This document shows positions 2,781 through 55,183 of a stretch of DNA of 64,000 bases, piece after piece. The notes beneath the pieces were generated by a model that saw nothing but the letters and a program-made list of their open reading frames with translations, was not told the origin of the DNA and did not search any database. The DNA comes from Candidatus Omnitrophota bacterium (GTDB lineage Bacteria; Omnitrophota; Gorgyraeia; Zapsychrales; Fredricksoniimonadaceae). Every line of letters begins with the position of its first letter. Position 1 is the first letter of the stretch. The position numbers and the translations under genes are program-made. The stretch spans positions 677-64,676 of the forward strand of contig CAIVRE010000009.1 in NCBI GenBank assembly GCA_903908245.1, written 5' to 3'.

Positions 2781-2978
2781 TCAGGGTGTAACAAAAAAAG
2801 CCGAAAACTCAACAGGATCCATAAATGGCTGCAGGCTGATGATCTGGATGTCGAACCCCCGGAATAACTGAAGAGCCTGGGATGCGCGCATCGGCGAGAG
2901 ATGATCCAGGTCCCCGGAGACCCCATGATCCGGCTCAAAACGGATCTTGCGGGCCGTATCCGAAAGATCAACGCCGCC
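2781..2978 (-). other. Conserved C-terminal family module (~65 aa) of giant protein A
   Basis: GGVDLSD...L..LQ.F.GF...I.SLQPF is similar to the GGIDL...FNID..L..LQD..GFSPVI..I.P tails of the other three paralogs. Confidence 0.6.
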
Positions 2979-5900
2979 ATTCTCGTTTTGCGCGGCATTA
3001 TCCTGCGATGGATTATTGATCATTGCCAACCGTGAAAGGATCTGCTTGCGCAACGGGGTCATCCTAAAATTCTTTCTGGCGGAGATCTGACCGTATAAAC
3101 TTCTAAGCTGCTTCATATATACTGCGGGGTCAATAAATTCTTTTGCAGCACGCAATACTTCGATCTTCTTTTGGATCGCCTCAACCTCGGTTGCATACTG
3201 AAGATATTGCTGCGCCAGACCCGCGAGGACCGGGTCGCTTTCGGATGCCCGCCCGGAAACTTTCTTCGCAAACTCTTCTGTCCGCACAAAAACCTGACTA
3301 TTGACCTTTCGGATCTGTTTCCTGTGCATTTCAGGGATACTGGCCCCTTTTTCACCGCGTAATCCCTCGGCCATCTTTGTCAACACCCCGATCTCCGTCG
3401 CATATTCAGAATATTCTTGTGTCAGGCCCGAAACGACCGGATCATCCTTTGATCCCTGCCCCGCCGGAAGTTCTTCCTCCTGTTCAGACACCTTCACTTC
3501 CCCTCCCTGCGGCACACTCTCTGCCACAACAATGGGCTCTGCATTAGGGCCCACAACTTCCAATATCGGTCGTTTTTCGGGCAACGGCACCCCCGACAAC
3601 CATGGAAGGGACGTGGGGGATCCCCCCGCACCCAGGCCCAACAACCTGTTAACGGCCTCCACGTCCTGCGTTCCATTAATATGGATCAGCAATGCATCCC
3701 CCGGGTACGGCAGGGCAGCGTTAACCGTAAGGCTGTCCGGCACATTGCGCCTCTTGGCCTGGGAAAGCATTAGATAGAACGACCGGAAAAGATCAAAGGC
3801 GTCTGCCCTCTCACCCTCCTCATAATTATTTTGAATATCTGCCCATTCAGTCCGGATCTCGGGATAATCCTTGCTGATCTCACTTTCAGGTTTTACAAAA
3901 ACATTAAGGATATCATTAGTAAAATTAAGATACTTGAGCTGGCCGGCCAAACCCGTCTTTTTACCCAGTTGATCCAACAGATCGGTCACGGTCGCCACAA
4001 CCCTTGGCCCAAGGATCATAACGCCCGTTAATGCCGGGAACTGCTTCAACGTGTTATTCTTCAGATCATATTTCTCACGCAAATACTGTAATATTTTGCT
4101 GGGATGCACACTTTTCTCTTGATTTTCCTGCAACCGCCCAATATCCAGCTTCTCCAGGATCTCCCTGACGGGAGGCCGTGTCCGGGTAACATCAATATTA
4201 AGAAGGCCAAGGCCCTTTAACGCCTGCCCATCCACCCAATTGCCCAATAATCCGATATCCGTGCCCTCGAATCCCTGCATGGGGCCGAAATAGGCATCGC
4301 GGCTATAGATCAAAATGTGCCCGCCCCGTTCCGCCCCATGGCCAGGCCGCACCGGCTGCGAGGACGACTCGGAACACGGCCCGTTCATACACGCAGAAGT
4401 GCGATAACCGTTGATGACAGACCAGTCCAGGACACTGTCACTGCGCAACTCCCGGCTGCCGGCAAAAACAAACATCACTTTCAGATCACTCCACGGGATA
4501 CCCTTCAGATACGGATACCTGTCTGTAAAATCACTGTCCTGCAATCGGCTTTGAACAAACTGCACGGCCTCCAAATACGCATTCCCGCTTCCCTTTAATT
4601 GCGCAGGCAATACTTCAACCGGGACATCTTCCCTGAAAATACTTCCGCGACGGGAATCAACATACTGCTTAAGGCTGTCAACATCATCCGCATCCGGGTT
4701 CTCGGGAAGGATAACAAGCATGTCAATGCTTCTTTCATTCTCCGGCGCGATCTCCCAGCGCAGCTTCTTCATCCCGTCTTTCACGGCCAACTGAACACTA
4801 TTCTCATCGGAGCTGTTTAGCACACCAGCCGCAACCGATGCCCCCAACCTTCCACGCAGATCGGATACAAGTTTGTCGGTAACGCTCTTCATGGTCTTGC
4901 TCCACGACATTTGCATGATATTCGCATGCGGCACCCAGAAAATACCCATGCTGATCGCAACCGCCGCAATCCCTGCCAGAGATAACCCCATTGTCCCGGT
5001 CACACCGAACAAGACCATCACACCAAAGATCGTAAACCCGAAAGGCACTGAAAACAGCCGCAACCGGCTTATAAAACTGCGCATTTTATGATTATTCCGT
5101 GCCGTCAGCGACCCAAGGGAAGTTAAATTACTGGCATTCTTTATAACAGCCGACAATACACTTTTGCTCTGTTGCTCAATGTCCCCCGGATCCCCATAAA
5201 AAGACGGCATCAGGGTGTTGCCCTGCCGCAACAGGTCTGGCACCTCTTTCTTGATCTGTCGTTCAGACCTGGTCAACTGATAACTGTATAAAAGAGCCCA
5301 CCGCATAAATGGATAGATCTTGAAGCGCTCGGCCCAATGATCGTCCGCAAATTTATAATTCATTACTTTGTCTATGATCCCCCGATACTCCAGGATCCGC
5401 AAATACGTGGTGACATATTCCATCATTCGCGCCAGCGTCTCCGCATCGCCCAATAATTTCTGCTTCTGGTAATCATCCAAAGACGCATCATCCCTTTGAA
5501 GAAGATCATTCATGGCATTGATCGTGTCAATGGCCAGCAGATTAAAATGGCTCAACACCACCTGGTATCGTTCATTGAGGATCGGGTCGGACCCCTGCCT
5601 CAACATCAGTTCGGGAGTATACGGAGTCTTGCGAAGGATATCAAAAGCGCTGTTGAGAATAGCGTTAAGATCACTTAAAACAGCCTGCGGGCCTGGCTGA
5701 ACATGCCTCCATTGGGACACAAGAGTTCTCCAGCTCTGTAACGGCTTGATGACCGCCTCGTCAAGGCCCCTGTTCGGAATGATGACCACATCCGACGACA
5801 ATCCCTGGATATTAACCTTTCCATTCCCGTTGCCGCTTTCTGCAGCAAATTCCTGACGCAGCTCGCGGATCATGTCGCCGGTCTTGGCCATTTTTCTTAG

Positions 5901-8900
5901 GATATCTTTACGGATCTTCTTCGCGCCAACCCAGAAAAGAAGACCGCCGACCAGCGCCAGAACAAGTTGTGACGCCACGGTAAGCCTTGGAAAACCCTGA
6001 TCATTGCCGCTGATAACTCCGGAAAATTTATCCCTCAACCCGACAATGTCCCTGACCATATTGTTCGTTGTTTTATCTCCACGGGCACTTAACTGATCCA
6101 GATATTCATTCACTTCCTGCGGATCATTTGCAGATCCGATCCTTTGCTTTAACTCACGGATCAGGGCCTGTTCACGGGGCGTATAGGCTGCCTGGCCCGA
6201 TAACCAACGCATCTGATGATTTGCCCTCTCGGCGATCAGGTCCAACGCCAGACGCGTTGCTTCCACCTTGATCTGCTGCATACGAGGAGCCTCACCTCGC
6301 GGGTCGCTCGCCGCATGCAGTTCCGGCAGAGTATACGTTCCGAGACGGACGTTCAAAAGCCCTTTCTCACCGACGCGATCCGCCATCTTTTCCATGGCAT
6401 GCCTGTAAACATCATTAGAAGCCGGATTATCAACGGCCTGCACATCCGCACGCAAAATATCGACCCAATGACGGCTGTCCACCAGGTCTAAAAGCCCTTT
6501 ATCATTTGAACCGGCATAAACCTGCAACGCCATCATCCGTCCGAGAGCGGTCGTCATCAAACGGTCCAGGGCCATACCCCTCAGCGATGTCTGTGATCGA
6601 AGGATACGTGCGAGCTCGGGGATATTATTCGTCCGGGCGATCTGCCTCTTCTGATCCTCCAGGTTAAGTCCATTAAAATACGCCAACGACGACGTCCCCT
6701 GCCCCCCTGCCGCCGTAATGCCGCTTAAAAATGGATCCAACCCTGTTGCCGCACGACCATTCAATGAAACGAGTGTTCCCGCGGCGATCTTCGCCCTTTC
6801 GTATAATGCCGGTGCAATAAAATCCTTCATCTCTCTCCATCTTGGAGAAGTCATTAAAAACCGGCGGTCAGCGGAACTCCATTCCCGCAGCATCACCAAG
6901 GCACGAAGGTCCTTGTCAAAAACAACCGACGAAAGATTGGCGAATGGCCCGGGGTAAAAAACATCTTCCATATTGCCCAAAGCCTCGCGCCTCAGGATCT
7001 CGTCATAGATCAGGACGGCCAGGCCTTGCGGTACCGATCCCGCCTGGCCTTTAAGGGTGTTATAAGTTTGCGCCAACTGATCCGATGTCCAGTAATCACT
7101 CTGCAACAAGCGCGACCTGGCAACGGAATCTTCCGGCGCCCAGGAGAGGAAAGCCAACAAGGCACGACGGCCCGCACCTGACTGACCCTGTCCGGCCAAT
7201 TGCCCAACAGCACCGGGATCCTGGATGAGGATATCACTTAACATTTCAAAACCAACCCCTGCGACACCAGGTTTTCGCTGATCAATGGCCTTCTCGATCA
7301 CCTGCGTCAGGAACCGCACATCATGACCGTCCCGGTTGACCGCGAACTGCAAAAGATTTACCACCACTTCAGAGTAGGGCGAATTAAGAACGGCCTGTTC
7401 AATGCCGGACAGAGATCTCCGGTCATTCGAAAGCTCCTCTGTCAGGAGCTTCATCGCCTCTGCCCGGGCCCTGATATTGGAGTCCTGTGTCAGGATCCCT
7501 ACGGCGATATCGATCTGAGCTTGCCGTGGATCTCCGGCTTCCGGGTTACTCATCAAAGCCCATAAATTCGATCCGCTCTTCCCGTCCGAAACCCCCGGTA
7601 CGGGGTAGATCACTGCTCCGGCGGATAATACCCCGGGATCCTGACGCTTTGAATTCAGCCCCTGCTGCCCTGGACCGAAGCCGGACAGATCAAGGGTCAA
7701 TTGCCCTTCTCCAATATCTCCCGCGAACACACTGCCACCGGCAACGGCTGAAACAAGCTGTGGGGCGAACGCAGCCGCTCTTGTCCTCGACGGCCTCACC
7801 AGAGACTGGTCCTGTTTCATTACCTGGATCCGCCCCAAACGGGCCTCAGCCTTGAAATATTCCGCTTTAAGGTCGATCAGCCGTTCAAAGGCCTTTGCCA
7901 TCCGCTGATGCTCGTCGACCAGTTGATCTTTCCTGTAAAGATCCGGCCGTCCGGCTTTCTCCTGCCACGCGTTCAAGGCAGCCTTATGCTCGGCCTCTCC
8001 CTGTTCGATCTGACGGCTCAAGTCCCTGATCTCCGACACGGCTTTAGTGAATGCCTCACCAAGCTCTGCCTTGACGGTATCCAAATGAAGCTGGACCTTC
8101 GCCCTTTCCAAAAGCACGATCTCCTTGCGCGCATCCCTGCCGGAATCAAAGATAGGAAGTTCAAAATGTAGCGCCCCGTTGCCTCCTGTTGTCAAAGAAC
8201 TTGTCCTCATCTTTGACCCGGGAGAAAGATCATACAACGGATTGACCGCCTGCCCCTGGGATCCGGAAATGAAGAGCCCCGTCAGGTCCGCTGTCGGCAA
8301 ATATTCCGACCCCTGCAACTTGATCGTTTCTTCCACGGCAGCCCGGGCAACCTGCGCCCCCCGCAGCCGGTAATTGGGGCTGCCCTCTCCTGTCAATTGG
8401 TGCCGCAAGGACTCCTGTTGATCAGCGGCAATCGCCAGGAATTCTCCATCCCACAATAATTTCGGGGAAATATCCTCCTGCAATCTTTCAGCGGGCCGGC
8501 CCAGCATCTGGTTAAGCTCGATCGTCGATTGTTTCTTCTTGTTCTGCCAGCTCAACAGCTGCGCACGGAATTCGCCGGTCTGCTGGGCCAGAACATTAAG
8601 GTCAGAGGTAGTAGCAAAACCTCCCGCCTCCCTGGCCTTAAGCCCTTTTTGCGCCTCTTCCAGATCGGCAACCAGCGCCTGAAGCTGAACAATATGCTGT
8701 TGGGCACGTCCGATCTCAACGAACAGGGCCGTTGCATCGTTGACCTGTCCGGCAACCGCATCTTCCATATGATGCTGGGCGATCTGGGTCATTTTTAACG
8801 CCAGCGCTTTCTCTTTTAATTTCTTCCCTGAAACGACATCCATGATCTCGCCGGCCACACTAAATACAATCGGAGAAGCCGCGGCAATAGCATTACCGGT

Positions 8901-11900
8901 CGAAACACCGGCCATGACATCGTCAAAAACACCATTAAGCCCGCCGCTGAACGCCAGCTTGCCATTGTTGTTCACAAAAACACCGGCCTGTAAAGCCAGG
9001 CGGGAACTCCCCGACAAACGCTCCGACGCCTTGCTCTTAAGAACATCAATGGTCAACTCACCATTAAGAAAATTGTTCCCTGAGACCCGTGCAACCACCT
9101 CCGTAATATTCAAGTTCGCCGCGGGTTGAACAGGCAACCGCAGGAGAGCCTCCCCCATCTGCACAGGCAAAGGTTTAACCCCGGCCTCAGACGATCGAAA
9201 GACCAGCCGCGGATCCATTTGAGCCAGAACACCGTCTTGCTGTCTTGCAGTATTGATCCGGTCCTGTTCCGACTTCCCCAACGCTGCCAGAATAACGGGG
9301 CTTTCCGCCTCTGTCGGCACAATAATCTGAACCGGCAGGTTGACCCACAAAACGCCGTTCCTGTCTCCATCTACGATGACCGCGACAGCCTTGACAGGCC
9401 CGAGATCGATTTCCCGTCCCACAGGGGCCTCATTGACAGCAGATACCCTTCCCGCCAGGCGTTCACCGGACGGCGCCTGAACAAGAACGGGGTCTCCAAT
9501 TCCGAGCTTCACATCCTTCGGCAACAAGATAGCCGTATTCATATCATTAATATCACCGACCGTAACACGGCCTGTTCTTACCCTCAGAAGTTCGTCCCCT
9601 TTGGAGAATGATGACGAATGTTCCGAAAGGATCCCTGTAACAACGCCGCTTTCCGTCGCCACGACCCGAAGGCGGGATATCTGCCCCTGAAGCGTCAATA
9701 TCTGCGCCCGTAACGACGCCCTTCTGGCCTCTAACTCCGCCTCCTGGCCGCGAAGAGTATGCCGGACACCCGACCCATCCGGCCCGGCTTGCGCAAGCTG
9801 AGCCTGAATGCTGTTAAAAGCCTTGACCGCACCGCGATATTCCTCAAAGTATGATCCCTCCACAACCTCGGCGACTACCTGACCGGCCTCAACCCTGTCC
9901 CCCTCTTTAACAAAAAATTTTACAGGTCCGCGCGCGGGAGCTACCATGACCCGCTCTTCCAGCTTACGGACCATCGCAAGTGTCTGCGCCTGTCCACGAA
10001 CAGCATCAAAATTGGCCTGCGTCTTCAGCGGCGGAAATATTTCAGCCTCCACCTGAACCGTACTGTTCGGCGGGATCATCGAAGAAGTTGTAACAAGGAA
10101 CGAAACGATCGCCCCGGTCTTTTTCGGATTGAGCTGCCAATCAACGCTCACAATATTCTTGACCGGCTGGCCATCGATCCTGAAATTACGGATACGGCCA
10201 AAATATGTCTGAGTCACCGGGATCTCGATATTCAAACGAGCCCTTTGTCCGTAATAGTAACTGACGATATCCACACCCTTGTTCACCGTCATTCCATTAG
10301 CCACCAGAACCTCTTTAATGGAAAGGTCACACGGGGCTTTAACGGCTTCAACAGAACCCTTCTGATCAGCCTGGGCCAACTGCCTGCGAAGCTCATTGAT
10401 CCTTTCTTCCACCGGGGTGAGCTCTGCGACCGTCGCCCCGCCTTGAGCCTGCAGTCCCTTCAAAACCCTGTAGGTCCCTTCTTCGATAACCAACCGCCTG
10501 GCCAATCCTTCCCGTTGCTGCACTCTCTCAGGATCGATCAACGAAAAGATAATGTCTCCCTGCTTGTACTGTCCCTTGCTCTGGTCAAGGCCAAGGACAA
10601 TACCGCCAACCTGGGCCGTCAAACCAGCCTCGTCAAGGACAAGAGGGGTCTTCGCCGAGATCACATACGGCTTCACAAAGGCCATTTCTGCCTCGACCAT
10701 CTTGGCCACTCCGGCATCGGCATACTTTTGATCCGCAACACGGATAGCGGGTGACACCTCGACTGCGGGAGGATATTTGATCGGGACAGCCTTGGAGCTT
10801 GCCTCAGGAGCCGGAACAGCGGCAGGCACGAACAGTTTCTTGACGATCGTTCCATCCGATCGAGGATGAACATCGTGTTTTTCAACATTGTTCCCGCCAG
10901 GAAGGCCATATGACACAAAAGTGCCGGCCGGAAAGATCGTATAAATACCCTTACCTCCCTCATAACCTACCAGCAGCTTCGTGCTTTTCGTCAACGGGAT
11001 AAATCCCTGGATGTCAAGGTCCGCAACGATCGTCTCTTCTCCGGTCTCCCTGTTTATAAGAGTACCCGAAGCAACCGATCGCGTTTTGGTTCCCTGATGA
11101 AGTTCTGCATCCTGTCCTGGCTGCTCCAACACGATCGGTGTCACGCGCTCAACAATGGCGGGATGCGCCGGCCCAGGCAATGGATCATTACCGGTTATTG
11201 TACACCCGGAAGAAGTACACAATCCAGCCGACGCGGCGAGAACCAACAATAACTTTCTTGATACACCCTTTGGAAGCAAAGAGAACTTTAAACGAAAGAA
11301 ATTGCTGACCGGCAGGACTGTTTTACCAGAGAAGAACGAAACAGGCCGGAACTGGATCTTTTGCGCTGCATCTTCGAATGAAAACCCACCCGAAAAATAC
11401 CGCCTGGGCACTGCCTCCTGCTGACCGGGGTCATACTCCTCCCGGATCATGTCGTAAGCGCCCTGCTTGAGCGCCAGCATATACTGTTCATAGATACGCT
11501 GACTTGCGCCCCTGTCTTTTGTATCAATACCCGCTATTTTCTTCCGGCCAGCGTATATTTGATTAACAATATTGCTCTTAAGCTGGCGCTTGAACCAGAT
11601 CGCCAGTATCAATGCGTGATACATTTGACGCAACTGGGCGAACTGCGGGCCATCGTTCACTTCCCGTTCGATCTCCGGGATAATGATCTCGCGTGTGATC
11701 GTAGAGCACAATCCATTGATCTTTTCACGATCGCCGGCGGGTACCGCATTATCGGGGACGATCTTTTTCATGCTCAAATAGTCTTCATCGAGCAAAACTT
11801 TCAGACGGCTCCCGGAAATGAACGCAGCCCCATCTTTCTCATAAACAACAGCACTCTCGGGGATCACCCATACCTTGTTAACGGAATTCAGGGGGACATC

Positions 11901-12449
11901 AACATTGCCATATTGCTGCCTGATCTTTATGTAAACCTGTTCCCAGAATTTCTTTCCCAGTTCGTGCTCGGGATTGGTCATCGAAGCGGCGATCTGTTTC
12001 AGGAAGTAATCCTGTGTCAGCATGTCCTTCCCCGCCGTTGTCGCGCCAAAGACCGGATTGACGATACGGTCCGGCTCGGCCGGAGAAAGGTTGACCCAAA
12101 GGTCCTTTGCGGGAAATGTCAGGAACGTAAGAAAATATTTTATAAGCGACCTGGACTGTTCCTCATCCACTTGCGCATGACTCCCGGCATCAACGACAAA
12201 ATTGATCTTGAACGGGTCATTGGGATCAAGTGAGATGGCTTTGAGATTGGGGATAAAAGACGGGGGTGCTATGGATAATTCCACTCCTGGCGGAGGCGCC
12301 ATCACAATGCTTTGCGCGTGTGCCTCCCGAACACCCAGGATATCAAAAGAATAAACAAGCAATAACGCCCAGATCATACATTGGAACCATGGGCGCCCCC
12401 TTAAGGCAAGTGAAGGATTCAGTTTTCTCTCTCGGGTCAATTGACGCAT
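2781..12449 (-). CDS. Giant secreted multidomain protein, paralog A (3222 aa). N-terminal family module, internal signal/lipobox-like segment, two HlyD-type membrane-fusion modules, TolC-like outer-membrane-factor module, 3 predicted TM helices, family C-terminal module
   Basis: Uninterrupted 9.7 kb ORF. N-terminal module aa ~46-355 is homologous to the three other giant ORFs (DPFKINF, DLWVNLSP, GKKFW, LRQMY, PRRYFSGG). Real start may be the internal Met at ~12377 (MIWALLLVYSF...AHAQ signal peptide). Confidence 0.9.
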   Translation of the reverse strand: MRQLTRERKLNPSLALRGRPWFQCMIWALLLVYSFDILGVREAHAQSIVMAPPPGVELSIAPPSFIPNLKAISLDPNDPFKINFVVDAGSHAQVDEEQSRSLIKYFLTFLTFPAKDLWVNLSPAEPDRIVNPVFGATTAGKDMLTQDYFLKQIAASMTNPEHELGKKFWEQVYIKIRQQYGNVDVPLNSVNKVWVIPESAVVYEKDGAAFISGSRLKVLLDEDYLSMKKIVPDNAVPAGDREKINGLCSTITREIIIPEIEREVNDGPQFAQLRQMYHALILAIWFKRQLKSNIVNQIYAGRKKIAGIDTKDRGASQRIYEQYMLALKQGAYDMIREEYDPGQQEAVPRRYFSGGFSFEDAAQKIQFRPVSFFSGKTVLPVSNFFRLKFSLLPKGVSRKLLLVLAASAGLCTSSGCTITGNDPLPGPAHPAIVERVTPIVLEQPGQDAELHQGTKTRSVASGTLINRETGEETIVADLDIQGFIPLTKSTKLLVGYEGGKGIYTIFPAGTFVSYGLPGGNNVEKHDVHPRSDGTIVKKLFVPAAVPAPEASSKAVPIKYPPAVEVSPAIRVADQKYADAGVAKMVEAEMAFVKPYVISAKTPLVLDEAGLTAQVGGIVLGLDQSKGQYKQGDIIFSLIDPERVQQREGLARRLVIEEGTYRVLKGLQAQGGATVAELTPVEERINELRRQLAQADQKGSVEAVKAPCDLSIKEVLVANGMTVNKGVDIVSYYYGQRARLNIEIPVTQTYFGRIRNFRIDGQPVKNIVSVDWQLNPKKTGAIVSFLVTTSSMIPPNSTVQVEAEIFPPLKTQANFDAVRGQAQTLAMVRKLEERVMVAPARGPVKFFVKEGDRVEAGQVVAEVVEGSYFEEYRGAVKAFNSIQAQLAQAGPDGSGVRHTLRGQEAELEARRASLRAQILTLQGQISRLRVVATESGVVTGILSEHSSSFSKGDELLRVRTGRVTVGDINDMNTAILLPKDVKLGIGDPVLVQAPSGERLAGRVSAVNEAPVGREIDLGPVKAVAVIVDGDRNGVLWVNLPVQIIVPTEAESPVILAALGKSEQDRINTARQQDGVLAQMDPRLVFRSSEAGVKPLPVQMGEALLRLPVQPAANLNITEVVARVSGNNFLNGELTIDVLKSKASERLSGSSRLALQAGVFVNNNGKLAFSGGLNGVFDDVMAGVSTGNAIAAASPIVFSVAGEIMDVVSGKKLKEKALALKMTQIAQHHMEDAVAGQVNDATALFVEIGRAQQHIVQLQALVADLEEAQKGLKAREAGGFATTSDLNVLAQQTGEFRAQLLSWQNKKKQSTIELNQMLGRPAERLQEDISPKLLWDGEFLAIAADQQESLRHQLTGEGSPNYRLRGAQVARAAVEETIKLQGSEYLPTADLTGLFISGSQGQAVNPLYDLSPGSKMRTSSLTTGGNGALHFELPIFDSGRDARKEIVLLERAKVQLHLDTVKAELGEAFTKAVSEIRDLSRQIEQGEAEHKAALNAWQEKAGRPDLYRKDQLVDEHQRMAKAFERLIDLKAEYFKAEARLGRIQVMKQDQSLVRPSRTRAAAFAPQLVSAVAGGSVFAGDIGEGQLTLDLSGFGPGQQGLNSKRQDPGVLSAGAVIYPVPGVSDGKSGSNLWALMSNPEAGDPRQAQIDIAVGILTQDSNIRARAEAMKLLTEELSNDRRSLSGIEQAVLNSPYSEVVVNLLQFAVNRDGHDVRFLTQVIEKAIDQRKPGVAGVGFEMLSDILIQDPGAVGQLAGQGQSGAGRRALLAFLSWAPEDSVARSRLLQSDYWTSDQLAQTYNTLKGQAGSVPQGLAVLIYDEILRREALGNMEDVFYPGPFANLSSVVFDKDLRALVMLREWSSADRRFLMTSPRWREMKDFIAPALYERAKIAAGTLVSLNGRAATGLDPFLSGITAAGGQGTSSLAYFNGLNLEDQKRQIARTNNIPELARILRSQTSLRGMALDRLMTTALGRMMALQVYAGSNDKGLLDLVDSRHWVDILRADVQAVDNPASNDVYRHAMEKMADRVGEKGLLNVRLGTYTLPELHAASDPRGEAPRMQQIKVEATRLALDLIAERANHQMRWLSGQAAYTPREQALIRELKQRIGSANDPQEVNEYLDQLSARGDKTTNNMVRDIVGLRDKFSGVISGNDQGFPRLTVASQLVLALVGGLLFWVGAKKIRKDILRKMAKTGDMIRELRQEFAAESGNGNGKVNIQGLSSDVVIIPNRGLDEAVIKPLQSWRTLVSQWRHVQPGPQAVLSDLNAILNSAFDILRKTPYTPELMLRQGSDPILNERYQVVLSHFNLLAIDTINAMNDLLQRDDASLDDYQKQKLLGDAETLARMMEYVTTYLRILEYRGIIDKVMNYKFADDHWAERFKIYPFMRWALLYSYQLTRSERQIKKEVPDLLRQGNTLMPSFYGDPGDIEQQSKSVLSAVIKNASNLTSLGSLTARNNHKMRSFISRLRLFSVPFGFTIFGVMVLFGVTGTMGLSLAGIAAVAISMGIFWVPHANIMQMSWSKTMKSVTDKLVSDLRGRLGASVAAGVLNSSDENSVQLAVKDGMKKLRWEIAPENERSIDMLVILPENPDADDVDSLKQYVDSRRGSIFREDVPVEVLPAQLKGSGNAYLEAVQFVQSRLQDSDFTDRYPYLKGIPWSDLKVMFVFAGSRELRSDSVLDWSVINGYRTSACMNGPCSESSSQPVRPGHGAERGGHILIYSRDAYFGPMQGFEGTDIGLLGNWVDGQALKGLGLLNIDVTRTRPPVREILEKLDIGRLQENQEKSVHPSKILQYLREKYDLKNNTLKQFPALTGVMILGPRVVATVTDLLDQLGKKTGLAGQLKYLNFTNDILNVFVKPESEISKDYPEIRTEWADIQNNYEEGERADAFDLFRSFYLMLSQAKRRNVPDSLTVNAALPYPGDALLIHINGTQDVEAVNRLLGLGAGGSPTSLPWLSGVPLPEKRPILEVVGPNAEPIVVAESVPQGGEVKVSEQEEELPAGQGSKDDPVVSGLTQEYSEYATEIGVLTKMAEGLRGEKGASIPEMHRKQIRKVNSQVFVRTEEFAKKVSGRASESDPVLAGLAQQYLQYATEVEAIQKKIEVLRAAKEFIDPAVYMKQLRSLYGQISARKNFRMTPLRKQILSRLAMINNPSQDNAAQNENGGVDLSDTARKIRFEPDHGVSGDLDHLSPMRASQALQLFRGFDIQIISLQPFMDPVEFSAFFVTP
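11384..12311 (-). other. Conserved N-terminal family module of giant protein A
   Basis: Aligns by eye with the N-termini of ORFs 15127-17514, 19215-22448 and 50492-55183. Confidence 0.8.
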
Positions 12450-15126: not shown

Positions 15127-15318
15127 TTACTTCTGCTCGTTCAACCCTAAAAACAACCTCAGATCACTCATCGGCTCAATATTGATGATAACCGGCGAAA
15201 AACCCAGAGTGTCCTGAAGTTCCTGTAACTTCACCTGATCAATATTGAACTGCAGCCCATCACCCGAACCTCGTGTTTCCACGCTCAAACGTTCCGCCGT
15301 CAGGTCAATACCACCTTT
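15127..15318 (-). other. Conserved C-terminal family module of paralog B
   Basis: KGGIDLTAERLSVETRGSGDGLQFNIDQVKLQELQDTLGFSPVIINIEPMSDLRLFLG. Confidence 0.7.
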
Positions 15319-19214: not shown

Positions 19215-19418
19215 TTACAGACCGCCTGCGGCGTTCGGCTGAATTCCCAGGAACTGTTGTAAACTTTCCGCCGGAAGTATCGACATGATCACCGGGGAAA
19301 ATCCTTCCGCGTCCTGCAGTCGCTGAAGCATGACCGGATCGATATTAAATGTAATCTCCCCGCCCTGATTGCGCACCACCAACCCCAGCTTGTCCGCGTT
19401 AAGATCGATACCACCTTT
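19215..19418 (-). other. Conserved C-terminal family module of paralog C
   Basis: KGGIDLNADKLGLVVRNQGGEITFNIDPVMLQRLQDAEGFSPVIMSILPAESLQQFLG. Confidence 0.7.
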
Positions 19419-22400: not shown

Positions 22401-22448
22401 TGCGCCCTTTCGAAGAAAGCTGTAAATGCTTCCCGTCTTATTCATCAT
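19215..22448 (-). CDS. Giant-family secreted protein, paralog C (1077 aa): N-terminal family module, hydrophobic segment, beta-rich region, HELLHxxQQ zincin-like motif, C-terminal family module
   Basis: Signal peptide (..VPDAYAQG); N module aa 37-350; HELLH encoded at 19788-19802 (checked at nucleotide level); C module aa 1010-1077. Confidence 0.9.
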   Translation of the reverse strand: MMNKTGSIYSFLRKGAVSALSFLLVLAQIVPDAYAQGALYLPAPGSRVELSSTFNPPVLKGIKVHPDDPFRFEFLLDKGDSVYPGAELKDESNRLIKYFLASLTVPETDLWVNLSPYEKDRIIPDEFGRSEMGRDLLAQDYLLKQVTASAIYPESEAGKKFWAEVYRRAAEQYGTTDIPVDTFNKVWIVPAEAEVFENGDKAFVVASRLKVMLESDYVALDNAVVKAPELSGNGVVPETQELTKNVIREIVLPLLEKEVNEGRNFTRLRQVYQSLILAAWYKKKVKASILSKVYVDQKKVAGVNIDDPKESEKIWGRYVEAFKKGAFNYIKEERDVYADEMIPRKYFSGGVNFAMSPVLNVTASPAQMTGGFSRAAFLGMLVVSMTLTTFNNANAGIAGVVQAAKDPGSAAVAGSQEIARDRVVFQGGLNEGVLRANGRASEGWDQYLNRVELDRDGALSVATLGDNMLQYTGHKAKLILNNGFSGVIFDGDFVVTFQVDRRMGGRVILVPRSADINGQMSTQGGFRFTSSNGKSVRVIFDEELADPVGNVRGYLHQMSSMSVDLLQSQKFLDWAKGYLESGISPEALGRTGQLLNGFQYDRTPDGRPYVVQARMGAFIEFINAQIKEAQQTIEEYKSAVNGLRERLKAAPQGTAFIGMTGLQNYLAFGSPVAVSWTGESAGIGSFSRDGAPLAPNNRGELGPGITKELGSVLSVLDGLNGNSIKVPASKGNGLTGYIASNDKIPEGHLDVFGEKGQEEYLRQARGEALANPVLGDLLEKLGINIKDPESFQKAPFVGNGGAFMQLNMSATPFFFFDPATGICFRPIFKSKEQMLNMAIGAALINKRGDVVDKIALEARSMNRDPYRVAAEYIRQETKASILHELLHAYQQKSPEIVLNMLQRLQSAGKWEVLKNRISGTYGDVLADILSNRTIGSDERLGKEVMAWLFQGYGSGRRNFMFDGMSDKDVGFYCDVFKAMGLLRSDYQVPDSLLSSAGSAVPVGHLPTGDTKGGIDLNADKLGLVVRNQGGEITFNIDPVMLQRLQDAEGFSPVIMSILPAESLQQFLGIQPNAAGGL
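21398..22337 (-). other. Conserved N-terminal family module of paralog C
   Basis: See paralog B; near-identical motif set. Confidence 0.85.
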
Positions 22449-30121: not shown

Positions 30122-30128
30122 AACATTA

Positions 30129-33053: not shown

Positions 33054-33583
33054 GCGGCACCTCTGTCCGGATCGGCCGGAACGATCACGCGGGAGCCTTC
33101 CACAAAACGACGCGCCGACGTCAAAGCTTCCGCCCTATCGAAAGCAGAAGGCTCATGGCGGGCGAACTTGACCATATCGCTAATATTCAGGAACTGGCCC
33201 AGGAATTCCTGCTGCACATCGGAAAGGTCCGGAGCGATCCGCACCCGCTCCATAAACTCTTCTGTTGTCATTTCCGGAGCGCGGATGTTAAAGCGCTCCT
33301 CGATATAAAGACGAATGATACCCGAAAGGCAGAAATAAAAATGCTTTACAGCCGCCTCTCCCTCGGGACGCGTTTGTTCCAGCCGGGCAAGTTCGGCCAG
33401 CGCTTTCTCCCATGGCGGAACAGGGATGGCAACAGGCTCCCTGGGTTGGAAATACCGCAGAACAGAACGAAAACCCCAGACGGCCAGAAGGACCAACACA
33501 AATCCCGCCAGCAACCACAACCACCACCAATCCCCGGGCAATGCCACCGGGGCGTGAATATCCCTCAAGCTCTGCGGCGTCAT
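33050..33583 (-). CDS. Small membrane protein of the bat operon (DUF4381-like)
   Basis: 177 aa with N-terminal TM (WWWLWLLAGFVLVLLAVWGF); translationally coupled (ATGA overlaps) on both sides. Confidence 0.55.
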   Translation of the reverse strand: MTPQSLRDIHAPVALPGDWWWLWLLAGFVLVLLAVWGFRSVLRYFQPREPVAIPVPPWEKALAELARLEQTRPEGEAAVKHFYFCLSGIIRLYIEERFNIRAPEMTTEEFMERVRIAPDLSDVQQEFLGQFLNISDMVKFARHEPSAFDRAEALTSARRFVEGSRVIVPADPDRGAA

Positions 33584-34497: not shown

Positions 34498-34525
34498 CAC
34501 GATCCTCCCGACAGCCCCTGATCGG

Positions 34526-45724: not shown

Positions 45725-45743
45725 ACCTCTTGTATTTTTTATC

Positions 45744-49462: not shown

Positions 49463-49463
49463 T

Positions 49464-50018: not shown

Positions 50019-50047
50019 TTTAACGCCCCCCTCGAATAATTTTGCCC

Positions 50048-50449: not shown

Positions 50450-50491
50450 TGTACCACAAGATCCCTGGAATTAAAGCGACACGATGGGAAC

Positions 50492-50683
50492 TTAATTAAC
50501 GCCCGCTCCAAAGAACCGGGGAAAACTTTCCAACGGCTTTATACTATATATGACAGGGGTCAATCCCGGGGCATCCTGATAAACTTTAAGCTCTTCAGGG
50601 CTGATGTTGAAATAAAAACCACCAGCCTGTCCCTGGACCTTCATATCCATCGTCCCGGCGCCAAGGTCAATACCGCCCTTCTC
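50492..50683 (-). other. Conserved C-terminal family module of paralog D
   Basis: KGGIDLGAGTMDMKVQGQAGGFYFNISPEELKVYQDAPGLTPVIYSIKPLESFPRFFG. Confidence 0.7.
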
Positions 50684-53600
50684 GGCCTCATCCAACGGCG
50701 CATCAACACGAATGGACTCAGCCTCAGGCCCAAACCCGGGAAGGTCCAGCTGGAGATAACGGGTCGGATTATCCGCGCTGTCTTTTAACGGATATAAGCG
50801 CTGAAGGGCTCCCTCGGCATCCTTCAAAGACACCCCCCACCATTCCTCCAAAAGCTCCTCATCCCCGGGCTTAACCCCATCTTCCGGGATCTCCTCCCCC
50901 CTGAAAATAGTCCAGGACGGAACACTCCTGAAGCCCATCTTATATAATATTTTCCCGGATCGATGGCTGACCGGATTGGCCGCCACATCCGCATTGATCC
51001 CCATTACCGCAGAACGGGATACCGCCTCTTCCAGCGTCTTCAAGAACAATATCTCTCCCAAACGCTTCCCCCTGAGATCAGGGACAACTTCCAGCAGGGA
51101 CAAGACATACCTCTCCTCAACATACCCGCGCCTAGAAGGAAGGCCTCCCCAAAGATGCGACAACGAGAGGCCGACCAAACTTCCGCCGGAACGCACCTCA
51201 ACAAGGAACGCGCCCGGGGCATGGGCTTTGATCCTCCAGAATTCAATATTCAAACTCCCGAAATCTTTATTGATGGCAAGCCACTCCGACACCATCTTTT
51301 CGATCTGCTCCTCGCCATCGATCGGCCTCATCGAAAACTTCTCGCCGGAGGCCATCGTGATATCAACAACCCCATTCTCTTTCTTTTCAACCGAGACCGA
51401 TGCGGCAGGATCAACGCTCTCCGCCGGACGCCAGCTCAAAAGCGATAACTGCGCGTCAAAACGGCCTTTCGATGCCTTTAAAATGTGCTCCCTGAAGCCT
51501 GCCTGCATGACAGCTGATCCAAACGGCGGCGTAGTTGCGACAAACTCCTCTAATCGGGGCAATCCTTTATGCTTGCGGGAAATCTGTTTGTAAAGGACTA
51601 CAAAATCCCTCATCTTCTGCAATTCCCGATTCGCAATGTTTGTCAACGGCTTGCCGTCCATGACCAGATCCATACTTGAACGGAACAAGGGGAACTCGTC
51701 GATCCATCGTTGAAGGTCCTGTGCCGCCATACCTTCCGGCGACCCTGGCCTTGAGGTGTCACAGAAGTTCTTCACTCGGATATCACCGATGATCCTGGAG
51801 AACAACTCCACGGCAAAAAGCGGATTAACAATATCCGTAACTTTCACAAACCTGACCTCGGGAGGCAACGCCTTCAAAAATCCTCCAAGAATGCCCTCTC
51901 CCTGCAGATCCGCATTGATATCTACCCTGTTTATCTGGATCCCGAACTCGCCGGGCCTTAAACCAAACCCATGATCAAGCCATTTCAGCCGATGGATGGA
52001 CCCCGCGGATCCGCCTGACACTCCATCGGACCCAACCGGTTTAATGACAAAACTTCGAAACTCCATCCCCTCCCTGCCCGGATCTTCCTGCAAACGGTAC
52101 GTCCGGCCTTTTTTATCCTCAAACACTAACTTTTCCAGACTATTCACCGTCATCGCACGATCCCCCGCCCTTCGCAATGATAATGAAAAGAAAGGCACTT
52201 TTCTGAGCGGCTCGGCCAATACCGCCAAAGCTTTTAAGCCGGCGTCTCCATCGAAAGCTCCGGCGGCGTACTTGTACGAAAGCCAGTCAAGATAAGAAGC
52301 CATTGGAACTGTCGCCGGGCTTGTATCCCATGAGACAGGCGCGGGGACCTCCAGCGACCGGGCTCGCCACCCCTCAAAGATATCCAGCCCTACACCCAGA
52401 TAAAAACGTAATGTCCTGACCGGATCACCGCCAACTGCCGTTGCGAATATCTGCACGACCGGCACACGGACCTCCCGCACTCCGCTCGCTTTCACTACAG
52501 CGGCCCTGTACACCTCATACAATTCCCGTGCTGAAAATTTCCTTGCGTCCCCTCGGAACTCGGGAAGAAGGTCAAAGGCAAGATCCGGCGGAAATCCATC
52601 AAGCTTCTCATCAATGCCATACGCCACCAACTGTTCTTGCACTGCGGTCTCCCTGCTGCGGCCATGTCCCGTAAAATACATCAAAGACAACGTCCTCTGT
52701 GCGGCGTACGGACTGAATACCGGAAGGCGCACAAGCCGGACCGTTCCCCCCGTTACCATAATTCTTGCTTCCAAGACCTTCTTTCCGCGTGCCAAAGCGG
52801 TCCGAACAGCCGTAAAATAACCGCGCGCGAACCTACTCCCCAAAGCAGGGGTTGTCTCGCGATATGCCAAAGACCGGATATACACTTCGAACCCGGAGAC
52901 CGCCTTGCCGGCATCTTTTGGCGTTAGCGAATTAAAATTGATCCGTTTTGATAATAAAATAAGCCGCTCGACCCGTTTCTGCCTGAAACCCGCCGAACCC
53001 GCTGATGCCTCTTCTTTTTCCTTCTGATAATCCTGAAATGTCACCCCTTGCGGACCCGAAGGCTCCTGAATGCTTTGGGAAGGATCAGCCAAAAGCAGGT
53101 CAGCAGCCTCTGCCTTCTGCGCCTCACCACTTAATTCCCCAAGGCGAAGCATCTGCCTGGAAAGAATATCCGCAACCTGCCCGTAGTGATCCCCAAGGTC
53201 TCTTCGCCTTCCTTTGACATAAAAAGCGGAAATACGGGATATGATCCCGTTCGCCCTGCCGATCTCCGCGATGACCGTTTCGATCGCGTCAAAACCATAT
53301 TGTCCCCTAAGCCTCTCCCGCTCATTCTCATCTTTATCCTGGGCACCGCGCAAACCGTAAGCTCGCTCCACCTGCGATGCCTGCTCCAACAGGCTCCCCA
53401 GCCTCCGGCCTAACCCCGGGACCACCTGATCGAGAAGATCCAGGTTATACCCGATGATCGATCCATTGGTTGGTAACCACGAAAGAGCCATCCCGCTGAT
53501 AAAAGTACGGCCAAATAATGTTTGACGGAGCTGCGAATTCGCAAGGCCGCCCCACCCGGACTCGGGACCGGTCTGCCTCAAAAGATTCAACGTCTCCGGC

Positions 53601-55183
53601 TCTTCCACACGGCTGTAAACCACCCGCCCTGCCTTAGGCTGAAGCTGCCCCATGAATGTTTTAAAAAGGCCTCCCTGCAAGCCCAACCTTTTGAAATATG
53701 CCCGCTTGATGGTCAGATCAGTGATGATGTCCCCAGGCATCGGCTTTTCATACTCCAGGGACAATACCTCCGGATCAACTTCAGTAACCTCCCCCTCAAA
53801 ATGCACCTGCCCCTTGGCAACCACCGTAAGCACAAAAACATCCCCAATACGCGTCCTGCTCTCTTCTTCGGATAACCGGCTGTAACGAGCCTCAAAAAGC
53901 ATCTCTTTCTCTTTAACCCGCATCATAAATGAATGTGTGACTCTCGGGCGGGTCGCAGTGATCCTGCGAATATTGGCCTCGATATCAAGAACGTTTTCAG
54001 GCTTTATTGCTTCAACGAAATTCCCCGGCGGGCCAGCCCAACCCGCTGGCCTGGCCAAAGAAGAGACCACCACACACCTGTCGGGAATGAATTTCCCCCC
54101 GTTAAGAATATCCTCAACCTGCAAGACACGCATTGAACTGTCCGACAGGACGATCCCGCCGGAAAAATATTTACGCGGCAGGACATCTCCGGAATATCCG
54201 TCTTTTTCCTCCTTGATAAAATTAAAAACCCCCTTGCGAAATGATTCCAGATACTGCTCGTAAACCCTCTGAGGAGCATCCGGCTCCCCCGTATCCACCC
54301 CCGCGATCTTGTTCTTGTCAACATAGATAGATGCCGCGATCGAATCCTTAAGCTTCTTTTTATACCAGGCCGCAAGAATAAATGAATGATACACCTGCCG
54401 CAGGCGCGAGAAATGTTCTCCTTCATTGACCTCTTTCTCCAGCGCCGGGATAACAATATCCCGCATGACCTGATTGGCCAGGCCATCAACATTCGCCGGA
54501 TCCCCGCCCGTCTCTGCAACGGTCTTCCTGGAAAGCGCCAGGTAATCCACCTCCAGCATGACCTTTAGCCTCGCGCCGACAACCAATGCGGCCGCCGATC
54601 CTTTCGCCGCATCCGGCTTCTCGTTCACCGTCACCTCTGACGGAACGATCCACACCCGATGCCGGGTATCGACCGGAATATCCGTTGTCCCGAACTTCGC
54701 TTGCGCCTGACGGTATACCTCGTCCCAAAATTCCCTGCCCAAAGCCTCATCCGGATTCAATGCCGACGCAGCGATCTGCTTTAAGAGATAATCCTGCTGC
54801 AAAAGATCGCGGCCCATTTCTGTCAGGCCAAACGCCTCGGGGACGATACGGTCTTTTTCTTCAGGAGAAAGGTTAACCCAAAGGTCTTTTTCGGGGATCG
54901 TAAGGGACGCAAGAAAATACTTGATCAATCGTTGCGATTCATCCTGCCAATCATGGCCATCGTCCGGCGTGTCGCCTTTATCCAGAATAAAATCGAACCG
55001 GAACGGCTGATCCGAATAAACACGCACTCCCACAAGCTCCGGAGCGGTAAAAGCCCCGGAAAAATGGACCATCTGTCCTGCCGCAGGTAAAAATTCAGAA
55101 CCCCGGGCCGGAGCTACACCCGTTAAGATGAAGATCCCGGACAAGAATATGGAAAGGCATTTTCTCAACAGCGTCATTCTCAT
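50492..55183 (-). CDS. Giant-family secreted protein, paralog D (1563 aa): N-terminal family module, long uncharacterised central region, GNAT-like motifs, C-terminal family module
   Basis: Signal peptide; N module aa 30-343; GNAT-like LRGKRLGEILF....NPVSHRSGKILYKMGF at aa ~1370-1420; C module aa 1500-1563. Confidence 0.9.
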   Translation of the reverse strand: MRMTLLRKCLSIFLSGIFILTGVAPARGSEFLPAAGQMVHFSGAFTAPELVGVRVYSDQPFRFDFILDKGDTPDDGHDWQDESQRLIKYFLASLTIPEKDLWVNLSPEEKDRIVPEAFGLTEMGRDLLQQDYLLKQIAASALNPDEALGREFWDEVYRQAQAKFGTTDIPVDTRHRVWIVPSEVTVNEKPDAAKGSAAALVVGARLKVMLEVDYLALSRKTVAETGGDPANVDGLANQVMRDIVIPALEKEVNEGEHFSRLRQVYHSFILAAWYKKKLKDSIAASIYVDKNKIAGVDTGEPDAPQRVYEQYLESFRKGVFNFIKEEKDGYSGDVLPRKYFSGGIVLSDSSMRVLQVEDILNGGKFIPDRCVVVSSLARPAGWAGPPGNFVEAIKPENVLDIEANIRRITATRPRVTHSFMMRVKEKEMLFEARYSRLSEEESRTRIGDVFVLTVVAKGQVHFEGEVTEVDPEVLSLEYEKPMPGDIITDLTIKRAYFKRLGLQGGLFKTFMGQLQPKAGRVVYSRVEEPETLNLLRQTGPESGWGGLANSQLRQTLFGRTFISGMALSWLPTNGSIIGYNLDLLDQVVPGLGRRLGSLLEQASQVERAYGLRGAQDKDENERERLRGQYGFDAIETVIAEIGRANGIISRISAFYVKGRRRDLGDHYGQVADILSRQMLRLGELSGEAQKAEAADLLLADPSQSIQEPSGPQGVTFQDYQKEKEEASAGSAGFRQKRVERLILLSKRINFNSLTPKDAGKAVSGFEVYIRSLAYRETTPALGSRFARGYFTAVRTALARGKKVLEARIMVTGGTVRLVRLPVFSPYAAQRTLSLMYFTGHGRSRETAVQEQLVAYGIDEKLDGFPPDLAFDLLPEFRGDARKFSARELYEVYRAAVVKASGVREVRVPVVQIFATAVGGDPVRTLRFYLGVGLDIFEGWRARSLEVPAPVSWDTSPATVPMASYLDWLSYKYAAGAFDGDAGLKALAVLAEPLRKVPFFSLSLRRAGDRAMTVNSLEKLVFEDKKGRTYRLQEDPGREGMEFRSFVIKPVGSDGVSGGSAGSIHRLKWLDHGFGLRPGEFGIQINRVDINADLQGEGILGGFLKALPPEVRFVKVTDIVNPLFAVELFSRIIGDIRVKNFCDTSRPGSPEGMAAQDLQRWIDEFPLFRSSMDLVMDGKPLTNIANRELQKMRDFVVLYKQISRKHKGLPRLEEFVATTPPFGSAVMQAGFREHILKASKGRFDAQLSLLSWRPAESVDPAASVSVEKKENGVVDITMASGEKFSMRPIDGEEQIEKMVSEWLAINKDFGSLNIEFWRIKAHAPGAFLVEVRSGGSLVGLSLSHLWGGLPSRRGYVEERYVLSLLEVVPDLRGKRLGEILFLKTLEEAVSRSAVMGINADVAANPVSHRSGKILYKMGFRSVPSWTIFRGEEIPEDGVKPGDEELLEEWWGVSLKDAEGALQRLYPLKDSADNPTRYLQLDLPGFGPEAESIRVDAPLDEAEKGGIDLGAGTMDMKVQGQAGGFYFNISPEELKVYQDAPGLTPVIYSIKPLESFPRFFGAGVN
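54154..55093 (-). other. Conserved N-terminal family module of paralog D
   Basis: YSDQPFRFDFILDKG, DLWVNLSPEEKDRIVP, EMGRDLLQQDYLLKQ, TTDIPVDTRHRVWIVP, RLKVMLEVDY, LRQVYHSFILAAWYKKK, PRKYFSGG. Confidence 0.85.

Follow-up and report, generated by a model that had tools for sequence, protein, structure and literature searches.

A large Omnitrophota-specific protein family with constant ends around hypervariable cargo

Introduction

A stretch of 64,000 nucleotides from a Candidatus Omnitrophota bacterium (GenBank assembly GCA_903908245.1, contig CAIVRE010000009.1, positions 677 to 64,676, below referred to as the window) contains four dispersed genes for large proteins that share their N- and C-terminal regions and carry unrelated sequences in between. 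This locus raises the question of what kind of proteins are built in this way, and what such a layout could serve. The Omnitrophota are widespread and uncultured, and their host- or prey-dependent lifestyle has been deduced mostly from genomes; they are described as ultra-small, with host-dependent or predatory traits (PMC10066038; 10.1101/2023.11.21.568195). The four genes belong to a very large Omnitrophota-specific family with constant ends around hypervariable cargo. It is plausible but unproven, as judged from the protein sequences, that its members are effectors or part of a delivery system. For the more specific proposal, in which the constant domains serve as handles for sorting or delivery, the cargoes work as effectors on or inside the cells of hosts or prey, and a recurrent linker motif, D-x-A-M, marks sites of maturation, we consider the chances to be about even.

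The four genes and their modules

The initial annotation had placed four giant open reading frames (ORFs), each with a signal peptide and a common N-terminal module (N-module), at 2781-12449 (A), 15127-17514 (B), 19215-22448 (C) and 50492-55183 (D), and these coordinates proved right. The ORFs lie on the minus strand and encode 3222, 795, 1077 and 1563 aa, respectively. Combined they measure 19,983 nt, which is 31.2% of the window and close to the earlier estimate of about 30%. Over the first ~350 residues all pairs are 40-66% identical, with BLASTP E-values of 1e-82 to 1.5e-159. The closest pair is B and C (66% over 357 aa, E 1.5e-159), followed by C and D (54%) and B and D (51%), and A is 40-44% identical to the others (E 1e-82 to 1e-93). 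The identity of about 70% first given for B and C is reproduced in a MAFFT alignment (70%), though not by BLASTP.

Hidden Markov models (HMMs) of the N-module and of the C-terminal module (C-module) were built from 280 and 254 sequences, respectively, all from outside the window to avoid circularity. In a six-frame translation of the window the N-module HMM matches A-D alone, with 394-549 bits, which upholds the significant N-terminal similarity claimed before. The C-modules of B, C and D are related with pairwise E-values of 1e-10 to 1.6e-15 and score 62-88 bits against the external-only HMM. The C-terminus of A is weak, with a pairwise E of 0.58 and a score of 14.9 bits (E 4e-4 in the window ORF set); its match ends exactly at the C-terminus and retains GGVDL...IISLQP. 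The proposal that all four proteins end in a shared module is thus clear for B, C and D, and the C-module of A is best described as a divergent rather than a clear copy.

Gene A consists of a signal peptide (residues 1-45, ...AHA↓QS, 12315-12449, read directly from the sequence), an N-module (residues 46-355, ending in ...PRRYFSGG, 11385-12314, 394 bits), a very long cargo and the divergent 65-aa C-module (GGVDL...IISLQPF..., 2784-2978). Gene B, the product of which is identical to database protein P0143, has a signal peptide (residues 1-28, SYA↓QS, 17431-17514), an N-module (residues 29-344, 16483-17430, 549 bits), a kinase-like cargo and a C-module of 62 aa (GGIDL...FNID...PVIINIEP...FLG, 15130-15315, 83.5 bits). 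The corresponding parts of gene C are a signal peptide at residues 1-35 (AYA↓QG, 22344-22448), an N-module at residues 36-350 (21399-22343, 531 bits) and, after the cargo, a C-module of 66 aa (19218-19415, 87.5 bits). In gene D the signal peptide (residues 1-28, 55100-55183) and N-module (residues 29-343, 54155-55099, 453 bits) precede a cargo of 1150 aa, with a C-module of 61 aa at the end (50495-50677, 62.2 bits). All these features are on the minus strand. In all four proteins the signal peptide has Lys or Arg in the n-region, followed by a hydrophobic core and a site of the A-x-A type (AHA↓Q, SYA↓Q, AYA↓Q and ARG↓S). In the gene call of a public assembly gene A starts 24 codons later (window 12378-12449), giving 3198 aa and dropping the positively charged n-region of the signal peptide, and gene C is called one codon shorter.

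At the DNA level the paralogues are 65-72% identical, their longest exact match is 23 nt, and each has a distinct AT-rich upstream region. Their divergence indicates that the window paralogues are old, and the DNA identity together with the length of the longest exact match rules out recent gene conversion among them. Chance similarity or an assembly artefact could be invoked to explain the shared modules, since many database relatives are fragments or marked partial. This explanation has a negligible probability, given the E-values down to 1.5e-159 within the window and the hundreds of independent assemblies that carry the family; an exact identity among A-D of at most 23 nt argues in particular against a duplicated assembly.

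Distribution of the family

A word-indexed protein search with the N-module of B retrieved 1,295 proteins, and a second search of this type with P0003 as the query retrieved 1,402. Nearly all named relatives are entered as 'hypothetical protein, Candidatus Omnitrophota/Omnitrophica', and none of the 1,295 relatives of B has a precomputed Pfam domain over the N-module. When 1.84 billion cluster representatives were searched exhaustively with the C-module HMM, 5,527 matched at E≤1e-3 and 1,837 at E≤1e-10, always with the module at the extreme C-terminus. Among the matches listed, 39 of the 51 proteins of at least 700 aa also have the N-module, at their N-terminus.

A genome scan with one genome per species yielded at least 577 confirmed loci, the best 80 of which were analysed in detail. 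These 80 stem from metagenome-assembled genomes (MAGs) labelled Omnitrophota/Omnitrophica, 'uncultured Planctomycetales' or, in one case, Candidatus Elulimicrobium. There are several loci per genome, with tandem pairs or triplets in L011, L017, L037, L056, L059, L060 and L078. Single matches carry the labels Minisyncoccia, Pacearchaeota and Candidatus Elulimicrobium, the last placed by NCBI in the Patescibacteria group. The labels outside the Omnitrophota probably reflect labelling or binning issues, not a wider distribution. By its sequence matches this is a very large family confined to a single phylum, the Omnitrophota, in line with the lineage specificity suggested at the outset.

Viral contigs, 2.9 million in number, contributed just three loci, and a viral origin of the family was rejected. 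These three (L083-L085) are IMG/VR contigs with a viral classification; their N-module genes show 55% identity, and they could be prophage-adjacent or misclassified host contigs.

Overall architecture

The plan of a constant N-module, a constant C-module and swapped cargo, put forward for the four window genes, is the rule across hundreds of relatives. The N-module, of ~315 aa, directly follows the signal peptide and never starts past residue ~120; the C-module, of ~65 aa, has the family pattern GGIDL...DPAML...PVIINIxP...FLG. Among 199 complete N-termini, a hydrophobic core is seen in 192, an n-region with Lys or Arg in 186 and an AXA-like site (often A-x-A↓Q) in 180; just two have a lipobox. 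The shortest complete member has 381 aa and the longest 3,222 aa (median 1,024), the cargo measures 2 to 2,775 aa, and the tail beyond the C-module has a median length of 7 aa. Some family ORFs overrun the ends of their loci (among them L043, L073 and L078) and are at least 3,650-3,750 aa long. In the genomic loci 52 of 67 same-frame pairs of N- and C-modules are joined in uninterrupted ORFs.

Three quarters (75%) of the cargoes lack a hydrophobic segment. Twelve members have one strong segment, often right past the N-module, and in 15 of 140 members a hydrophobic segment lies within 80 aa of this module. Segments resembling a second signal peptide or lipobox are present at residues 400-418 of A (LLLVLAASAGLCTSSGC, about 11196-11252) and residues 372-390 of C (AAFLGMLVVSMTLTTFNNANA, about 21279-21335), and a similar relic lies right past the N-module of P0088. 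In these three proteins it looks as if the N-module had been fused ahead of a complete exported pre-protein.

Cargo diversity

The cargo regions of A-D were thought to be mutually unrelated, and BLASTP detects no significant similarity among them (best pair A-B, 29% over 96 aa, E 0.004). The cargo of A contains MFP/TolC-like coiled-coil regions and three to four hydrophobic segments; it matches Pfam OEP with E 1e-5, over the gathering score, and TIGR01730 RND_mfp with 3.4e-9, under the cut-off. That of B is kinase-like (PADLOC PD-T4-6, 1.3e-8; MAD6 kinase, 7.8e-5). The cargo of C includes the internal hydrophobic segment described above and a HELLH string, and has no family match in Pfam or NCBIfam; D has a weak GNAT match close to the end of its cargo (17 bits, under the Pfam cut-off). 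Hence the earlier labels of A as TolC- or adaptor-like and of B as kinase-like have modest profile support, but the GNAT label of D is below threshold and the zincin-like label of C comes down to the HELLH string.

The exchange of cargo was quantified with 138 distinct proteins having both modules, which were compared in 9,453 pairs at a BLASTP threshold of E<1e-5. Related cargo was found in 71 pairs (0.75%), while the N-modules of these proteins are 42-100% identical (mean 65%) and the C-modules have a mean identity of 47%. Unrelated cargo occurs even behind N-modules that are ~90% identical, including a pair from one genome (L033 and L035). The N- and C-module identities correlate (Spearman 0.73), and therefore both ends travel together. 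These comparisons indicate that the cargo is swapped, not merely diverged. The cargoes of A and B are the only ones of the window with a relative in the sampled set. The C-terminal half of the A cargo (residues about 1924-2952, including the transmembrane cluster) is 39% identical to positions 3-3530 of L049, a locus from another Omnitrophota MAG, and so provides a rare example of cargo that is shared.

In a Pfam scan of 93 members the cargoes include kinases (Pkinase, Kdo, APH and YrbL) and many S-adenosylmethionine (SAM) methyltransferases, along with GNAT, HATPase_c, Zeta_toxin, Polbeta nucleotidyltransferase, HAD, His_Phos_1, PPDK_N, Bac_transf, HEAT and TPR domains. Radical_SAM cargo is present in 3 of 40 members. 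In the locus of P0012 (genes at 7067-9727 and 9743 onward) a cargo ORF behind a split N-module has dCMP_cyt_deam_1/MafB19-type deaminase domains, and the gene that follows this ORF is again of family size (1471 aa). The MafB19-type deaminase is a known polymorphic-toxin domain. Taken by its domain matches, the recognisable cargo would mostly perform chemistry of a cytoplasmic type that needs ATP, SAM, acetyl-CoA or Fe-S clusters.

The nature of the cargo bears on an alternative in which the proteins form a display scaffold at the envelope or surface of the producer. In that case the N-domain would be an anchor to the outer membrane, to peptidoglycan or to a surface coat, with the C-domain aiding assembly and the cargo acting on the producer's own surface or in its periplasm. 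Sec signal peptides and mostly soluble cargoes would suit such a scaffold, as would the resemblance of the A cargo to parts of a periplasmic adaptor and an outer-membrane channel; the relics resembling signal peptides or lipoboxes past the N-modules of A, C and P0088 suggest that cargo was taken from already exported proteins. However, most recognisable cargo depends on nucleotides or SAM and could not run in the periplasm or on the surface, no SLH, OmpA, LysM or lipobox anchor is detectable in the N-module, and a lipobox occurs in 2 of 199 N-termini. We regard this alternative as rather unlikely. The proposal that the cargoes are effectors of other cells is taken up again below.

The D-x-A-M motif

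The linkers on both flanks of the cargo contain the motif D-x-A-M, with the variants N/D-x-A/S-M/Q, often followed by beta-branched residues. The frequency of AM dipeptides per residue is 0.0229 in the 50 aa past the N-module, 0.0130 in the 40 aa ahead of the C-module and 0.0023 in the middle of the cargo, corresponding to a ~10-fold and a ~6-fold enrichment at the two junctions. Asp occupies position -2 of the junction AM in 106 of 160 cases past the N-module and 52 of 73 ahead of the C-module. The motif follows the N-module in 110 of 140 proteins and precedes the C-module in 62. It is also over-represented within the cargo, where 78 copies are seen against 8.9 ± 3.2 after shuffling (~9-fold; 200 shuffles, maximum 19), at a spacing of every few hundred residues and often as doublets. 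Neighbouring ORFs outside the family (n=409) show no excess of D-x-A-M, with 14 copies seen and 18 expected.

D-x-A-M lies in polar linker sequence, the flanks of which are unconserved save for the weak preference for beta-branched residues after Met. In the DNA every Ala codon and both Asp codons occur, and because synonymous sites vary freely D-x-A-M is a motif at the protein level. Its codon usage and the lack of a purine-rich or Shine-Dalgarno-like upstream signal rule out that it represents an internal ribosome-binding site with a start codon.

The window has 11 copies of [DN]x[AS][MQ] in 6,657 residues, and six of them are located within 16 residues past the YFSGG end of the N-modules of A-D. 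The motif scan identifies DAAQ, a variant, 5 aa past the N-module of A (11361-11372), DLSM in B (16450-16461) with a second copy, DGSM, 8 aa onward, NFAM in C (21384-21395) and DSSM in D (54131-54142), all on the minus strand. Of the others, two lie just ahead of the C-module of A, and D has DESQ in its N-module and DPSQ and DRAM in its cargo. DRAM, at residue 1008 (52151-52162, minus strand), is a possible boundary between two cargo units. The C-module contains the related sequence DPAML. From its distribution D-x-A-M may be a processing site or a boundary between units.

A role as unit boundary is also part of a different explanation, according to which the family members are small relatives of the giant Omnitrophota proteins. 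The common termini would belong to membrane-associated multi-enzyme polyproteins that are inserted by an unusual route, with the enzymes at the cytoplasmic face of the producer. The Pfam repertoire of the family closely matches that reported for the giants (HEAT_2, HATPase_c, Radical_SAM, TPR, PPDK_N, HAD and methyltransferases), and the giants have reported unannotated N-terminal regions near signal peptides. Moreover, the family ORFs that overrun the ends of L043, L073 and L078 measure 3,700 aa or more, and in long members D-x-A-M recurs every few hundred residues. Yet 75% of the members have no transmembrane-like segment past the signal peptide, which makes a cytoplasmic location of the cargo hard to reach, and we judge this explanation to be unlikely. 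If the cargoes are instead released as effectors, the same D-x-A-M sites would be the places of cutting.

Relationship to known domains

Neither module is matched in Pfam-A or NCBIfam, with whole proteins searched at E≤1 and isolated modules at E≤10, and the N-module profile has zero matches among the sequences of the Protein Data Bank (PDB). The C-module profile matches a Roco 'Rab family protein' (PDB entries 5il7, 6hlu and 8r4b) with E 1.4e-8. This match was rejected as homology because the E-value sums 13 matches of 2-4 bits each to internalin-type leucine-rich repeats. Three other PDB matches of the C-profile are borderline (E 0.023-0.14). Profile positions 84-107 (PVIxxIxPLxSLxxFLG), which make up the final third of the C-module, are like one unit of the internalin-type 22-residue leucine-rich repeat.

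An AlphaFold2 (AF2) model of the N-module of B, with a pLDDT of 74.7, predicts seven helices and three beta-hairpins and has no fold match in the PDB. The C-module, modelled on a minimal member, is predicted as a small mixed alpha/beta domain with two short strands and helices (pLDDT 70-79); for this model, also of moderate confidence, no PDB fold match was obtained. The view that neither module belongs to a known family is borne out by the negative Pfam, NCBIfam and PDB searches, the AF2 models being of moderate confidence. The modules and D-x-A-M are undescribed in Pfam (2025), NCBIfam (2026) and the searchable literature, including the main Omnitrophota papers, and the family apparently has not been described before.

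It might nevertheless be asked whether the modules are diverged forms of a known sorting or docking family, such as the C-terminal domain (CTD) of type IX secretion system (T9SS) cargo, dockerin, the two-partner secretion (TPS) domain, SLH or a PEP-CTERM-like domain. The layout of a Sec signal and a short constant C-terminal domain on many cargoes in one phylum is indeed T9SS-like. But the Pfam and NCBIfam searches at E≤1-10 are negative, the profile searches of the PDB gave no meaningful match, and the AF2 models predict a mixed alpha/beta C-module instead of a seven-strand sandwich and an N-module of helices and three hairpins instead of a beta-helix. This relationship is therefore considered very improbable.

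Interrupted genes

Many N-module matches in the databases are 341-366 aa long and stop just past the N-module. Free-standing 'N-only' proteins are ruled out as an explanation, as all six examined turned out to be the first piece of a split gene: downstream of each lies a large same-strand cargo ORF, with a C-module at its 3' end in all cases where this end was recovered. One in-frame TAG, located 10-15 codons past YFSGG, splits L087/L088 (6250-6252 / 4283-4285), L090 (5042-5044) and L092 (2514-2516), and L091 is split by an in-frame TGA (locus 5060-5062). With L017 and L031 included, the single in-frame stop is TAG in four of six cases, and the same frame runs on into cargo and C-module. One TAG takes the Q/M position of a D-A-A-Q/M motif. 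The TAG stops cluster next to the junction of N-module and cargo.

L086 (7030-7040) and L089 (2712-2720) are frameshifted at poly-G runs in the invariant Ser-Gly-Gly codons. Runs of 7-8 G at Ser-Gly-Gly occur at 3 of 95 sites (these two and L024, at about 10980), each of them frameshifted. Phase variation at poly-G as a general mechanism is ruled out, since runs of at least 7 G are present at 3 of 95 sites and all of these are frameshifted. In L089 a Transposase_mut (MULE-type) gene (3017-4309) lies between the N-module ORF and the downstream cargo ORF.

An internal stop is found in 5 of the 67 same-frame pairs of N- and C-modules. The split genes could be pseudogenes, assembly errors or polymorphisms in a family of fast turnover, and read-through is possible too. 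Repetition of the N-module and frequent splits at the junction help to explain why many members appear in MAG annotations as fragments or with a wrong start.

Genomic neighbourhood

The other genes of the window encode a phosphate-type binding protein, porins, NDH-2, LpxB, an MFS transporter, glutathione peroxidase, PPK2, PlsX/FabH/FabD, FadL, RecG, pyruvate kinase, an M48 peptidase with LemA, PFOR and an acetyl-CoA-synthetase-type ligase. Between C and D, at 27534-35518 on the minus strand, lies a complete aerotolerance-type operon with a MoxR AAA+ ATPase, DUF58, two VWA/BatA-like proteins, a TPR protein, BatD and an SH3/TPR protein. The window contains zero Rfam families. The minus strand carries nearly all of its genes, and the GC skew, from -0.10 to -0.21, is negative in all 4-kb bins, consistent with a single replichore and a strong gene-strand bias.

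A search for a conserved neighbouring secretion or processing gene, recommended in the initial annotation, was negative in the window and in the 80 related loci. All-versus-all clustering of the ORFs of these best 80 of at least 577 loci did not reveal a conserved partner gene. The clusters comprise only antisense shadow ORFs and generic housekeeping families, the commonest being an ABC exporter in 7 of the 80 loci.

Proposed function

A reading of the family as effectors is suggested by the Sec signal peptides, the toxin-like and cytoplasmic-type cargo and the predatory or host-dependent lifestyle reported for the phylum. In the mechanism that we propose, each protein would be exported by Sec and its signal peptide could be cleaved. 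The N- and C-domains would be common handles that route or present unrelated enzymes outside the cytoplasm, by way of a sorting or delivery step specific to the phylum. Cargo units would subsequently be cut free at D-x-A-M sites, and together the cargoes would constitute the effector set of ultra-small, host- or prey-dependent bacteria. The parts of this mechanism that we infer are transport past the periplasm, an effect on other cells, proteolysis at D-x-A-M and the binding targets of the two domains. A locus for type II/IV secretion and pili is conserved throughout the Omnitrophota (10.1101/2023.11.21.568195; 10.64898/2026.06.07.730766).

Several observations weigh against this proposal. The strongest of them, which is directed at simple export, is that a Sec signal precedes radical SAM enzymes and other cargo in need of cofactors; these are odd passengers, because ATP, SAM and Fe-S clusters are not available outside the cytoplasm. 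The authors who described the giant Omnitrophota proteins met the same puzzle (10.1101/2023.11.21.568195). The neighbours of A-D in the window are ordinary housekeeping genes, and no immunity-like or secretion gene is conserved beside the members in the 80 loci. In the members with one strong hydrophobic segment, this segment, if membrane-spanning, would set the N- and C-terminal ends on opposite sides. The most conserved N-module motif, DLWVNLSPxEKDRI, sits in a low-confidence loop of the AF2 model, and the absence of fold matches is weaker evidence than it looks because the AF2 models have a pLDDT of 71-75. Finally, cleavage at D-x-A-M is deduced from the motif's sequence context, and the localisation and function of the members are predictions from sequence alone.

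The display scaffold and the relationship to the giants discussed above are not fully exclusive of an effector role. A more far-reaching and more tentative possibility, to which we give clearly less weight, is that N-domain, C-domain and D-x-A-M together define a new sorting, delivery and maturation route specific to the Omnitrophota, by which thousands of cytoplasmic-type enzymes would be Sec-exported, cut and released into or onto host or prey. Within such a route the N-domain could be a translocation or self-processing module, and the same logic may underlie the giant proteins of the phylum.

The family is a strong candidate for the molecular toolkit behind the host- or prey-dependent lifestyle of the Omnitrophota, and it makes what these nanobacteria deploy against their hosts directly testable. 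Profiles of the N- and C-modules would annotate thousands of 'hypothetical proteins' and list candidate effectors per genome, and they would allow checking whether the giant proteins follow the same plan. Specialists in candidate phyla or in secretion would be surprised that more than 5,000 clusters of such proteins, which share two unannotated domains and a junction motif, have been overlooked.

Similarities to known secretion and toxin systems

The working logic of the family has precedents in T9SS cargo, MARTX toxins and polymorphic toxins, although by our comparison it falls outside each of these systems. The T9SS cargo proteins of the Bacteroidota likewise combine a Sec signal with a short constant C-terminal domain on many unrelated cargoes, and they too are found in one phylum, in many copies per genome and in scattered genes. 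Unlike the present proteins they are without a constant 315-aa N-domain, and hydrolases and adhesins make up most of their cargo, in place of the kinases, methyltransferases and radical SAM enzymes seen here. The T9SS CTD (Por_Secre_tail / TIGR04183) is unmatched in Pfam and NCBIfam by whole proteins at E≤1 and isolated C-modules at E≤10, its seven-strand Ig-like beta-sandwich is not predicted for the C-module by AF2 at moderate confidence, and none of the genes in the 64-kb window encodes a T9SS component.

In MARTX toxins conserved N- and C-terminal regions bracket variable internal effectors, which are freed at short linkers. D-x-A-M linkers around and between cargo units would fit this logic of release. 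MARTX toxins differ in that they use type I secretion, lack a Sec signal and have glycine-rich repeat arms as well as a cysteine protease domain; in A-D a Sec signal is present, and neither the glycine-rich A/B/C repeats nor the cysteine protease domain is matched in Pfam or NCBIfam. In our comparison the resemblance is one of working logic only.

The polymorphic toxins (CDI, Rhs, LXG, MafB and related systems) share with the family constant trafficking parts, swapped enzymatic domains, multiple copies, some of them in tandem, and cargo of the zeta-toxin, deaminase and nucleotidyltransferase types. Their toxin domain, however, is at the extreme C-terminus and is accompanied by an immunity gene, whereas here the variable part is internal and the C-terminus constant; a conserved downstream gene is not found in the 80 loci. 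In two-partner secretion a constant TPS domain of ~250-300 aa comes straight after the signal peptide of large variable exoproteins, similar to the position of the N-module. The TPS domain is a beta-helix and needs an adjacent TpsB gene, in contrast to the helix-rich N-module with its three hairpins in the AF2 model; no TPS/haemagglutination-activity domain is matched in Pfam, and a TpsB (Omp85-type) neighbour is absent from the window and the 80 loci. Docking of the cohesin/dockerin type, an idea of the initial annotation, receives no backing, as the Dockerin_1 repeat of Pfam is unmatched by A-D and the isolated modules, a cohesin signal is likewise absent, and neither the window nor the 80 loci contain a candidate cohesin scaffold.

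The giant proteins of the Omnitrophota, named 'Archaeovorins' (10.1101/2023.11.21.568195), exceed 30,000 aa and have many transmembrane helices, unlike the present family, the members of which measure 381 to about 3,700 aa or more and are mostly without such helices. In other respects they are alike. Both occur in the same phylum and have signal peptides, and in the giants N-terminal regions without identifiable domains are reported near these signal peptides (10.1101/2023.11.21.568195). In addition, they have in common a repertoire of methyltransferase, radical SAM, HEAT, TPR, PPDK_N, HATPase_c and HAD domains (10.1101/2023.11.21.568195; 10.64898/2026.06.07.730766).

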